A stretch of 28,522 bases of DNA from Candidatus Njordarchaeota archaeon (GTDB taxonomy: Archaea; Asgardarchaeota; Njordarchaeia; Njordarchaeales; Njordarchaeaceae): assembly GCA_029856615.1 (NCBI GenBank), contig JAHKLF010000001.1:1-28522 (forward strand), written 5' to 3'. Shown here piece after piece: positions 2,865 to 14,236 of the stretch. Each line of letters starts with the position of its first letter. The first letter of the stretch is position 1. A program made the position numbers and the translations under genes. Under the pieces are notes generated by a model. It saw nothing but the letters and a program-made list of their open reading frames with translations. It searched no databases and was not told where the DNA came from.

Positions 2865-3656
2865 TTATTCAAAAAATTCATCTCGGAATTTAATCATACC
2901 AAAAGTTTCGGGATATGAACTAGAAAATATGGTTATTATTAACCGTCGGTCTCTGCGGAGTTTTTTAATGTAAAAGCGATTGTCTATGAATAATTCCCAT
3001 ACTCTACCTAATGCTGGAACAACTTTCTCCACTGTCCATATATCCTCAATATGCTGCCCAAAAACTTTCGACTCCATAAGTGATTTGTCCTCCTTGATGT
3101 AGGCTCTGACTTGATTAGATACTACTATTGTACATCCATCGGATATCTTTTGTAAGAAGACGCCTAATTTGACAACAGTATGTAAATACTCAGAAGACCA
3201 CGCCTCTTCATCCTTAAATAATAATTCGCTCTCTAATATAGTGGGAACGGAATCAATTATTAACAATACCTCATGATCAGAAGCATTTTCTTTAATTTTC
3301 CCGATCACAGTTCGCATCATGCCATGTAGATCATTTATTTGGTATACATAAATTCTAGATAATAAACTTCGTGCTTCAATACTATTTGCTAAACATAATT
3401 TCACTATTCTTTTAGGATTAAAGCTCTTGTCGGCATCGATGTATAGAGCTATGCCTTCTCTGTAGCTATAAAGAAAGCGAAATGCTAATTGATGAAGAAG
3501 AATAGTCTTTCCAGCACCGGCAGCGCCACAAATTTCTGTTATTTCATAAAGAGGAAAACCTCCATGTTTATCGAAGAACGCTATCCCAGTGAGAAAGTAT
3601 CTCTTATAACTACTTGAAATGCGCCTTATAATATCATCCTTCGTTGGAATGATCAT
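2865..3656 (-). CDS. RecA-fold ATPase, RadA/RAD51 paralogue (RadB- or RAD51C/D/XRCC3-like)
   Basis: TEICGAAGAGKT Walker A, ALYIDADKSF, LLIIDSV Walker B, VVSNQV, PALGRVW; no N-terminal HhH domain. Confidence 0.85.
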   Translation of the reverse strand: MIIPTKDDIIRRISSSYKRYFLTGIAFFDKHGGFPLYEITEICGAAGAGKTILLHQLAFRFLYSYREGIALYIDADKSFNPKRIVKLCLANSIEARSLLSRIYVYQINDLHGMMRTVIGKIKENASDHEVLLIIDSVPTILESELLFKDEEAWSSEYLHTVVKLGVFLQKISDGCTIVVSNQVRAYIKEDKSLMESKVFGQHIEDIWTVEKVVPALGRVWELFIDNRFYIKKLRRDRRLIITIFSSSYPETFGMIKFRDEFFE

Positions 3657-5487: not shown

Positions 5488-5880
5488 TCACTTTTGATGA
5501 AGTTTGATCTCAGTCCATAAATCGCGAGGCACAGATACGCCTACTAAGTATACTAAATCTTGCCTTGTGAGCTCTGCGACTATCAATCGCTTATGTATAC
5601 TAAATTCAAAGAAATCATATGTAGGAGTTCCTTCTCCGCATGGAGACTTCCTCACTGACAAGAAAAGCCTCTTTGTTGGTAATCTTATAGGACCAGAAAC
5701 TTTTGCACCTCTATTCTTAAGGATCGCAACTAAACTACGAGTGAATTCTTCTAATTTGCTTACATCAATCCCAGCTACCTTAAGAGCTATTTTCATTCTT
5801 CTTATGCCAGGTGATTTCCTTTGTACACGCCGTCTTGTGAACCTTCTTGTGAGCCTTTGACTAGCTTGCTCTGCGCTCAT
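5488..5880 (-). CDS. rps10: 30S ribosomal protein uS10 (divergent, Arg-rich N-terminal extension)
   Basis: GAKVSGPIRLPTK..VRKSPCGEGTPTYD.FE..IHKRLI. Confidence 0.92.
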   Translation of the reverse strand: MSAEQASQRLTRRFTRRRVQRKSPGIRRMKIALKVAGIDVSKLEEFTRSLVAILKNRGAKVSGPIRLPTKRLFLSVRKSPCGEGTPTYDFFEFSIHKRLIVAELTRQDLVYLVGVSVPRDLWTEIKLHQK

Positions 5881-5967
5881 ATTAATAACCTCGAATCAAT
5901 ACAATAATTATACAATCTCTCTTTCTGTTAGTTGTGAAAAAATAAAAAGTTAATCATTATTCGATTT

Positions 5968-6096
5968 TTATTTACGTCTTCTCCTAACTGCTATCTTCCT
6001 TTGCGCATATACGTGATGAAGTAAAATGGCAACAATAGTTAATATTCCAAGTAAATAAATTATGTACTCTACGAGATCTTGCGGACTTATCTGCAT
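5968..6096 (-). CDS. Unannotated 42-aa single-pass membrane protein, OST4-like
   Basis: MQISPQDLVEYIIYLLGILTIVAILLHHVYAQRKIAVRRRRK*; ATG 2 nt after the upstream stop with a purine-rich RBS; one TM helix plus a basic tail. The ORF is well supported; the OST4 identity is an inference. Confidence 0.7.
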   Translation of the reverse strand: MQISPQDLVEYIIYLLGILTIVAILLHHVYAQRKIAVRRRRK

Positions 6097-6098
6097 CT

Positions 6099-6788
6099 TC
6101 ACTCTTCCTCTTCCACTTCTATGATTCCTAATAACTCTTGAATGTGCCTTTCTACTCGCTTAATATTTGGAACTAACGGAAGACTAATCATTTTTCTTTC
6201 TGAGGGAAAATATAAAACTAATGTTCCGCTCCTAAATAAAGCATACTCAAATATATCACTGATTTCTATAGAATACTTCATTCCATGCGTTGGATAGCGT
6301 TCAATTTTGCCAAATATCCCTCTGTGATGGGTAATCTGATTGGGTTCTATAATCCAATAATCCCATCGCCTACTAAGCCATATTAGAAACAGTGTAAATA
6401 AGAATCCAAAACCTACTAAGAAGTACGCATGACTTGATAAATACGCTTCTACGCCTAATAAAGCTTCAATCAATAAAGATCCTGGCACCACCTTTAGCTG
6501 TGCTAATAACAAGTAAACGAGAACAAGGATAACGATAATAGTTATTAATCCAAATGTTTTTGCCTCATTAAACTCAAATGCTATGATGAAGACGTTAAAT
6601 ATCAAGAAAAGAACGAATACGAGACCTAATGCTTTCTGGACACTAGGTAATGTACCTATGAATGGTATAGATTCTATCGTACCAAATATTATTGCAAGCA
6701 CAGCCGTTGGAAGAAGAGTAACAACTTTAGGATACGATCTTACAATTATTTTTTCTACCTCAGAGGAAGGCTTATTTGACGGTTGCAT
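6099..6788 (-). CDS. Multi-pass membrane protein with C-terminal bacterial PH-like domain
   Basis: About 4 TM helices, then YWIIEPNQITHHRGIFG...IFEYALFRSGTLVL (bPH-type pattern). Start moved to ATG 6788, which is preceded by GGGGTG. Confidence 0.7.
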   Translation of the reverse strand: MQPSNKPSSEVEKIIVRSYPKVVTLLPTAVLAIIFGTIESIPFIGTLPSVQKALGLVFVLFLIFNVFIIAFEFNEAKTFGLITIIVILVLVYLLLAQLKVVPGSLLIEALLGVEAYLSSHAYFLVGFGFLFTLFLIWLSRRWDYWIIEPNQITHHRGIFGKIERYPTHGMKYSIEISDIFEYALFRSGTLVLYFPSERKMISLPLVPNIKRVERHIQELLGIIEVEEEE

Positions 6789-6908: not shown

Positions 6909-7460
6909 ATGAAAAGACGAATTACTATTACCGTTCTTTTATCAGCGCTTTTAATTATAAGTCCAATCGCGTCTTATGGAGCTGATATAATAGCAGATGC
7001 TACAACAATCAAAGAGAAATATCGACAGAATGAAGAAATTGAAATTATGGCAAGTATTTTAAATAATGATACACGGCCTCTAACCTTAGTTCGATTTAAT
7101 GTCACAATAGTATACGCTAAAAAAATGGGAGGAGAAGTACGTTTAGCTAAAATGATTATAAGGGACTTAGAAAAATACCAACTTCAGTATCGCGAATCTT
7201 ATACGGTGCATGTGACGATTTCATTGAGTGATTTACCTCCAGATAAATACAATTTAACAGCGATGTTCATTTGTTACTATGAGCCGTTGCATGAAAGAAA
7301 ACTTGTCGTATTAAAAGATCAACAGTTTCAATTACTGCCTAGCATAGAAATCCCGCCAACGGTCATCTTCGTAGCTGTAATAATGGTGGCGATTATTGTA
7401 ATTTATATAGGATATGGTATCTCAGGAAGAGTAGGTAAAATCTTACGTCGACGAAAGTAG
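6909..7460 (+). CDS. Type I membrane protein (signal peptide, beta-sandwich, C-terminal TM, basic tail), TRAP-alpha-like
   Basis: Signal peptide, alternating beta-strand pattern, sequons NDT/NVT/NLT, TM helix then KILRRRK. TRAP-alpha similarity is by eye. Confidence 0.6.
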   Translation: MKRRITITVLLSALLIISPIASYGADIIADATTIKEKYRQNEEIEIMASILNNDTRPLTLVRFNVTIVYAKKMGGEVRLAKMIIRDLEKYQLQYRESYTVHVTISLSDLPPDKYNLTAMFICYYEPLHERKLVVLKDQQFQLLPSIEIPPTVIFVAVIMVAIIVIYIGYGISGRVGKILRRRK

Positions 7461-13231: not shown

Positions 13232-14236
13232 ATGACACAAAAAGCTAAAGAGAGAACATTCAATGAGAAAGAATGGAAACAACGAGTCTTAAAAGAGCTA
13301 TCATCACTACCCGGAATAGGAAAAACAATCGCACTAAAGCTATTTGATGCTGGTTACGTATCTATAAACTTGTTAGCTGTGACATCTCCTCGTATCTTAG
13401 CCGAAGAAACTGGCATTGGAGAGAAAACTGCAGAAAAAATTGTTGAAGCTGCGAGACAAGTTACCAAATTGGATTTTTCCACAGCTCTTGATTTCTTACA
13501 AAAAAGAAAAAATGTTAAACATATAACAACAGGATCCAAATCTCTTGATGATCTACTAGGAGGGGGAGTAGAGACCCAAGGAATAACCGAATTTTACGGT
13601 GAATATAGAACGGGAAAAACACAAATATGCCACACATTAGCAGTTACTGTGCAATTACCAGAAGAAAAAAAAGGACTGAATGCTAAAGCATTATACATTG
13701 ATACTGAAGGGACCTTTAGGCCTGAGAGAATAATACCCATCGCTAAGCGGTTTGGTTTAGATCCGGAAAAAACACTAGAAAACATCATTGTAGCAAGAGC
13801 ATTCTCAACAGATCACCAAATGGAGATAGTTAGGAAAGTGAAGAAAGTAATACCAATTGAAAATATAAAGCTGATAATAGTAGACTCTATAATGAATCAC
13901 TTTAGAGCAGAGTATGTAGGAATAGATACTCTTGCAGTTAGACAACAGAAATTAAACATACACATTCATGATCTTCAGAGAATAGCATTTGCATTTGATG
14001 TAGCTGTAGTAATAACAAATCAGGTTGTTACAAATCCAGCAACGTTCTTTGGAAGTCCAATCAGCGCTATAGGCGGGCACATCTTAGCGCATAATGTAAC
14101 GACGCGAGTTTCTTTAAGAAAAGGAAAAGGCAATAAACGAATTGCGCGATTGGAAGATAGTCCCTATTTACCAGAAAGCGAAGCTGTATTTGAAATCACG
14201 GACGAGGGAATAAAAGACATAGAAGAGAGCGAGTAA
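13232..14236 (+). CDS. radA: DNA repair and recombination protein RadA
   Basis: N-terminal HhH (LPGIG, GIGEKTA), [53 protein letters not shown]. Confidence 0.97.

Follow-up and report, generated by a model that had tools for sequence, protein, structure and literature searches.

A conserved 42-residue single-pass membrane protein of Njordarchaeales as a candidate Ost4

Our analysis of a stretch of 28,522 nucleotides from Candidatus Njordarchaeota archaeon (NCBI GenBank assembly GCA_029856615.1, contig JAHKLF010000001.1, positions 1 to 28,522 of the forward strand; hereafter the window) indicates that a small gene on its minus strand, at 5968..6096, encodes a protein of 42 aa which probably is, and works like, the Ost4 of Njordarchaeales, i.e. 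the mini-subunit of OST (oligosaccharyltransferase). We put the probability of this reading at roughly 0.68. The evidence comes from the sequence itself, from alignments, pN/pS values and orthologues, and from a docking prediction, and it is from these that we infer binding to the catalytic subunit AglB, the topology, the function and a shared ancestry with eukaryotic OST4. Yeast Ost4p has 36 aa and human OST4 has 37 aa (Pfam PF10215; PDB 1RKL, 6EZN, 6C26 and 7OCI), and Ost4 is the subunit that stabilizes STT3 and recruits Ost3/Ost6 (subcomplex II). The source genome comprises 1.8 Mb in 300 contigs and is 76% complete.

An ORF of 42 aa at this position had been proposed in an earlier annotation made from the letters of the window (the initial annotation), and reading of the minus strand bore this out with the sequence as quoted there: the frame opens with ATG at 6096-6094 and closes with TAA at 5970-5968. 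An in-frame GTG at 6102, which overlaps the stop of the preceding gene, offers an alternative start for a protein of 44 aa; in the alignments, the orthologues all start at the ATG (as MQIS or MQIT) and none at the GTG. With its 42 aa and one hydrophobic stretch, the product has the size and build of an OST4 mini-protein, i.e. of a protein with a single TM (transmembrane) helix, and it consists of a short acidic N-terminus, a TM helix of approximately residues 9-31 and a basic C-terminal tail, KIAVRRRRK. The basic tail and acidic N-terminus lead, by the positive-inside rule, to the prediction of a 42-residue single-pass membrane protein whose N-terminus lies outside and whose tail is cytoplasmic.

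The putative translation-initiation region (6097..6115, minus strand) is the purine-rich GAAGAGGAAGAG, which at the same time makes up the acidic-tail codons of the upstream gene, and it carries GAGG at positions -14 to -11 before the Ost4-like ATG; the stop codon of that upstream gene (TGA, 6101-6099) stands two bases ahead of the ATG. Among family members, a GGAGGTGA-derived Shine–Dalgarno-like motif was found at most 18 nt from the start in 14 of 17 cases. Because this motif falls, in the window's genus, within the Glu codons that encode the acidic tail of the upstream protein, the sequence suggests that the Ost4-like gene is translationally coupled to the upstream membrane-protein gene in that genus, and it would be translated from its own Shine–Dalgarno-like site, there embedded in the acidic-tail codons. 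Approximately 20 nt past the Ost4-like stop, we read from the sequence an oligo-T run, CTTTTTATTTTTTC (5935..5949, minus strand), which resembles an archaeal terminator and precedes the separate gene for ribosomal protein S10 (rpS10, 5488-5880). A scan for bacterial-type promoters and terminators gave nothing relevant.

A profile of 19 members located the family in 12 of the 14 Njordarchaeales genomes searched, the two genomes with no match being 66% and 77% complete, and further members were found on five metagenome contigs. The initial annotation had named synteny in related genomes as a check on the gene, and such synteny was indeed found: in a six-frame search all five same-genus genomes with a match have the ORF directly after a homologue of the upstream gene, two of these five positional orthologues having E-values too poor to be accepted by themselves. 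Among the family members pS is 0.55-1.0, i.e. saturated, against a pN of 0.12-0.47; for the pair of genomes G004 and G006, for example, these values are 0.75 and 0.12 respectively. These data show that the gene is conserved and under purifying selection. On the metagenome contigs it occurs in two kinds of neighbourhood, one with the order Ham1, 183-aa protein and small ORF, and the other with L13, small ORF and S10. Its neighbours thus change across the order, those in genus g2 being different again, yet the small gene remains intact.

On this evidence the 42-aa ORF is almost certainly a real gene. The opposite view, that the spacer separating the membrane-protein gene from rpS10 is open in this frame by chance, can point to the shortness of the ORF and to a product that, in the window, matches no family, and we consider it very improbable: the frame and its start have been kept in approximately 22 genomes and contigs although synonymous change is saturated, Shine–Dalgarno-like motifs are present, an invariant His and its spacing are conserved, and the gene stays whole although its neighbours differ. 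In practice this conservation pattern appears to refute a chance frame. The initial annotation had further supposed that such a gene would be missed systematically by gene callers, which turned out to be incorrect. A protein identical with the 42-aa product is present in a public protein collection (P0005), and at NCBI its relatives are entered as hypothetical proteins of Njordarchaeia or Njordarchaeales; gene callers therefore do find the Ost4-like gene.

The Njordarchaeales family comprises approximately 22 sequences of 36-53 aa, each with a single TM helix. The N-terminus is short and usually has an acidic residue, Glu in most members, with Asn in one subfamily (the N-type), and the tail is polar and, in the window's genus, strongly basic. 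The most constant feature is a His, invariant in 22/22 members, and 11 residues ahead of it every member has a small residue (G in 18/22, A or S in 4/22). The residue immediately preceding the His is Y in most members, H in the window's protein and F, N or S in others. Human and yeast OST4 have G15-x9-Y25-H26, with a spacing between small residue and His equal to that of the family, and the OST4 signature of a small residue, nine hydrophobic residues, Y and His has its counterpart in the window's protein as G17-x9-H27-H28, carried by the TM helix. For this comparison the human sequence was used as printed in PMC5988510, and residues 1-30 of yeast Ost4 were obtained from a PDB match. The human sequence given in the initial annotation is correct, and the features that this annotation listed as shared (I[ST]xxxL, LG preceded by one extra residue, nine hydrophobic residues and [YH]H) are all present. 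Its expectation that LG-x9-[YH]H would be conserved in syntenic orthologues held for the spacing and for the His; because the residue before the His varies to N, S and F, [YH]H proved too strict, and the G is itself replaced by A or S in the four members mentioned. In the six-frame translation of the genome (3.6 million residues) the pattern [LIVMF]G-(9 hydrophobic)-[YH]H occurs twice, and only one of the 7,067 ORFs of 30-60 aa contains it, namely the 42-aa ORF.

Given a real gene with this motif, the main question is whether the family descends from OST4. It might instead be a genuine, conserved single-pass micro-protein of other ancestry, in which G-x9-x-H arose by convergence or chance and which serves another membrane partner, e.g. 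the TRAP-like neighbour or the four-TM/PH-like protein described below. We regard this as unlikely, although it carries enough weight to be set against each line of evidence in turn. It is at odds with the uniqueness of the motif among the small ORFs of the genome, and the sequence comparisons fall on both sides.

The Pfam Ost4 model (PF10215) has 34 positions and a gathering threshold of 25 bits, which no family member attains. The window's own protein gave no Ost4 match in Pfam at E-values up to 1, and a six-frame scan of the source genome with the Ost4 model, a check that the initial annotation had recommended for small ORFs, returned nothing at E-values up to 10. When the window's protein was used as a single query against PDB nothing was retrieved, and the family profiles A1 and A2 found no OST4 chains there at E-values up to 10, their top match being a TM segment of a poxvirus. 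Against 1.84 billion protein representatives, the family profile recovered the family alone at E-values up to 1e-3, with no eukaryotic OST4, and the profile of the N-type subfamily recovered only its own four members from a set of 5.8 billion proteins. A search of the ESM Atlas by features gave a best score of 0.83, which lies within the chance range, and no named family. The absence of a Pfam match for the window's protein and the failure of the profiles to retrieve eukaryotic OST4 both favour a micro-protein unrelated to OST4.

Other members of the family come much closer to OST4. For P0011, a syntenic member, Ost4 is the best Pfam family (E 1.1e-4, 22.4 bits), the alignment running from Met to Met across positions 1-31 of the 34, and for P0015, also syntenic, Ost4 is again the top family (E 1.2e-3, 19.1 bits); three further members have weak Ost4 matches. 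The best match of P0011 in PDB is yeast Ost4, with residues 1-30 aligned on 1-30 (E 0.0072). Comparison of the family with human OST4 by hhalign gave a P-value of 6.9e-5 and a probability of 63%, with G placed on G and H on H, and the N-type subfamily alone gave a P-value of 4.1e-5. With the family HMM, human OST4 obtains 11.3 bits and yeast Ost4 10.1 bits, a level attained by one of 1,064 natural TM segments of the genome and by 0/5,000 shuffles of human OST4 and 5/5,000 shuffles of yeast OST4. In reading all of these values it should be borne in mind that short hydrophobic helices easily obtain inflated similarity scores. An unrelated micro-protein would nevertheless have to account for two syntenic members with Ost4 as top family, aligned end to end, for yeast Ost4 as the leading PDB match of P0011 and for hhalign P-values of approx. 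5e-5 in the same register. Taken together, the Ost4 signals are each sub-threshold, and they form a weak but consistent set in a single register.

Pfam Ost4 was also run over 400 Asgard genomes. No match lay above the cut-off, and the sub-threshold matches were mostly random frames without start codons. At E-values up to 1 the model matched in 268 of the 400 Asgard genomes (e.g. at L022, L030, L034 and L036), as it did in 7 of the 14 controls, and these noise matches are hydrophobic stretches ending in YH. The sole exception is genome G008, in which the best match is the family member itself. Because the control genomes match too, the 400-genome scan is uninformative, and six-frame scans with Pfam Ost4 are not usable for finding archaeal Ost4; the readiness with which the model matches hydrophobic noise also speaks in favour of a family unrelated to OST4. 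None of six small ORFs from outside Njordarchaeales that matched the family profile weakly had a Pfam Ost4 match, and therefore no bridge to the other Asgard classes was established. In other Asgard families we observed small ORFs of 34-38 aa at L075 (1288-1395, plus strand), L087 (1328-1441, minus strand) and L085 (1513-1614, minus strand), each with an acidic tail and with [FY]H at the end of its TM helix. They match the Njordarchaeales profile weakly, with E-values of 4e-4 to 5e-3, and gave no signal with Pfam Ost4; these could be the Ost4-like genes of those lineages, or noise.

The initial annotation had taken the protein for an archaeal OST4. Near-threshold relatives and the docking described below agree with that identification, whereas the missing Pfam Ost4 match of the window's protein and the inability of the profiles to find eukaryotic OST4 do not. 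In view of these last two results, we regard common descent of the Njordarchaeales family with eukaryotic OST4 as probable and stop short of calling it shown.

To examine the candidate Ost4 as a binding partner, the STT3/AglB of the genome (728 aa, contig C135) was folded together with the 42-aa protein. The docking score was 0.76 in three runs with alignments for both proteins, compared with 0.00 for the best of the controls, which were run without alignments; the mark used is attained by 58 of 80 solved complexes and by 2 of 110 mismatched pairs. The runs share at least 84% of their contacts and the pLDDT of the partner is at least 73. On AglB the modelled interface is formed by residues 19-45 (TM1), 145-153, 424-435 and 464-483 (TM13), of which, according to a hydropathy map, 145-153 correspond to a helix near residue 150, 424-435 to the end of TM12 and 464-483 to the final helix ahead of the WWDYG motif (514-518). 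In the model G17 of the 42-aa protein contacts AglB residue 30, and the contacts of the small protein run antiparallel to TM1, an order which would place its N-terminus outside and its basic tail inside.

According to a review of the yeast structures (PMC7226087), Stt3 accommodates Ost4 between its helices TMH1 and TMH13, and the Stt3–Ost4–Ost3 subcomplex is destabilized when charged residues are introduced at Ost4 positions 18-24. The model thus supports binding of the 42-aa protein to AglB at the published Ost4 site, and the packing there that the initial annotation had anticipated from co-modelling with AglB/STT3 was reproduced as a prediction. Specific docking at this site, with controls at 0.00, is difficult to reconcile with a micro-protein that has some other partner. 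As OST complexes have already been solved, however, the pass may be a matter of model memory, and it may express likeness to the known OST complex rather than prove that the window's copy binds. If it does bind, the helix of the Ost4-like protein would lie in the TM1/TM13 groove of AglB, with G17 facing TM1 and the invariant His at the cytoplasmic boundary of the membrane, and, by analogy with yeast, the protein would stabilize the catalytic subunit and provide a surface on which further OST subunits could dock.

The gene upstream of the Ost4-like gene (6099..6788, minus strand; probable start ATG at 6788, the ORF being open to 6875) encodes a protein that combines four TM helices with a PH-like domain in its C-terminal part and ends in the acidic tail EVEEEE. 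Its adjacency to the small gene, seen in the five same-genus genomes mentioned above, is limited to that genus, within which the two genes may form one transcription unit. The protein matches no Pfam family; its model has a pLDDT of 67, and the fold matches to PH domains are weak (E at least 0.014). It has no known link to OST. We considered it as an Ost3/6 and rejected this, as the domain order differs and the fold is PH-like.

On the other strand, at 6909..7460 (plus), lies a gene for a protein of 183 aa with a signal peptide, a β-sandwich, a TM helix and a basic tail. Its AlphaFold model has a pLDDT of 83, and in a fold comparison with PDB the ranks 1-4 and 9 are taken by chains of Sec61–TRAP translocons (8rjc_5, 8b5l_q, 9n9j_5, 8b6l_E and 8btk_TA; E 1.7e-6 to 1.6e-5, TM-scores approx. 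0.5-0.65). At the sequence level no match was found in Pfam, TRAP_alpha included, or among PDB sequences. From its modelled fold the 183-aa protein is probably a TRAP-α-like subunit. Beyond it follow Ham1, a TPR protein, an Fe–S assembly protein and the ribosomal proteins L18e and L13. In genus g1, G008 and two metagenome contigs the small ORF adjoins the 183-aa gene; it is not beside it in genus g2 or on the L13–S10 contigs. That the most constant neighbours are TRAP-like and PH-like proteins, with AglB on another contig, is what one would expect of a micro-protein serving one of those neighbours; the variation in gene order and the other neighbours in genus g2 count against it, and Ost4 remains the reading that we prefer.

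Eukaryote-type OST and TRAP subunits occur in the same genome as the Ost4-like gene, in the form of STT3, ribophorin I and TRAP-β. The STT3/AglB (728-732 aa) scores 137 bits with Pfam STT3, and NCBI labels its relatives as Njordarchaeia or Njordarchaeales; the ribophorin I/Ost1 homologue is an open frame of 699 aa with 39.8 bits, above the cut-off, and the TRAP-β homologue a frame of 201 aa with 52.8 bits. As these three sit on separate contigs (C135, C268 and C48; loci L053, L091 and L092), the OST/TRAP genes are dispersed and do not form one operon. A candidate for Ost3/6 is weak (12.7 bits, in a genome that is 76% complete), and Pfam TRAP-alpha gave no match in the genome.

Within the window, the initial annotation had pointed to OST2-like and OST5-like genes. 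An 80-aa ORF at 20413-20655 (plus strand) does match Pfam Ost5, at a sub-threshold level (E 3.5e-4; 21.2 bits, cut-off 27.4), and the ORF of 134 aa that overlaps it and lies upstream of it (20028-20432, plus strand) matches no Pfam family. The OST2-like gene lacks the support of Pfam DAD (DAD1/Ost2), a model with no match in the genome at E-values up to 0.1. The window also contains an ORF of 251 aa (18298-19053, minus strand) with a sub-threshold match to CCDC47, a subunit of the PAT complex (E 5e-4; 19.7 bits, cut-off 27.7), possibly another accessory factor of the ER-translocon type. In addition, there are two RecA-superfamily genes in the window, at 2865-3656 (minus strand) and 13232-14236 (plus strand), the pair consisting of a full RadA/Rad51 (Pfam Rad51, 328 bits) and a shorter paralogue of 263 aa (44.6 bits).

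Asgard homologues of Ost2, Ost4, Ost5, Swp1 and Wbp1 have been reported previously, with Ost4 and Ost5 present in most Asgard classes [Eme et al. 2023 (Nature 618:992, PMC10307638)]. That article devotes one sentence to Ost4, and its supplement gives detail on Ost5 and Wbp1 only; in a 2024 study of the Asgard translocon Ost4 goes unmentioned. Our family resembles those homologues in being a probable Asgard relative of Ost4 within an expanded OST/TRAP/Sec61 set, and to that sentence the present analysis adds a family alignment, a selection test, synteny with a TRAP-like gene, near-threshold links to Pfam and PDB, and a docking prediction. As the idea was published in 2023, the value of the present work lies in documentation and testability and not in discovery, and the Njordarchaeales Ost4-like family adds a well-documented member to a kind of protein for which the literature already makes this claim.

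Should the protein be a genuine Ost4, the STT3–Ost4 core of OST subcomplex II would be older than eukaryotes, and this would support an Asgard ancestor with a multi-subunit glycosylation machine at the translocon. The family also provides a testable pair from one genome, the 42-aa peptide and the 728-aa AglB, and bridging sequences that nearly attain the Pfam Ost4 model. The N-type members share M-I-S-x-E-x-L-N...G-I...Y-H with yeast Ost4. It is conceivable, although we consider it doubtful, that this family is the prokaryotic Ost4 nearest in sequence to the eukaryotic one, and that the STT3–Ost4 core and a TRAP module were genomically linked before eukaryotes arose; such a linked translocon accessory unit is proposed on account of the recurrent pairing with the TRAP-α-like gene.

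Compared with eukaryotic OST4, the 42-aa protein differs in several respects. It has one additional residue ahead of the G and H-H in place of Y-H, and its cytoplasmic tail is longer and strongly basic; in the Njordarchaeales family a conserved Glu (E10) occupies the position at which eukaryotic OST4 has Asn or Ala. It also scores below the Pfam Ost4 threshold. The similarities comprise a length of approximately 40 residues with one TM helix, a short N-terminus of polar character, an I[ST]xxxL close to the beginning of the chain and, in equal register, a small residue separated by nine hydrophobic positions from an aromatic or polar residue that His directly follows. The N-out/C-in orientation of eukaryotic OST4 is likewise predicted for the 42-aa protein, and the site between TM1 and TM13 of the catalytic subunit, published for yeast Ost4, is the one at which the archaeal protein is predicted to bind.
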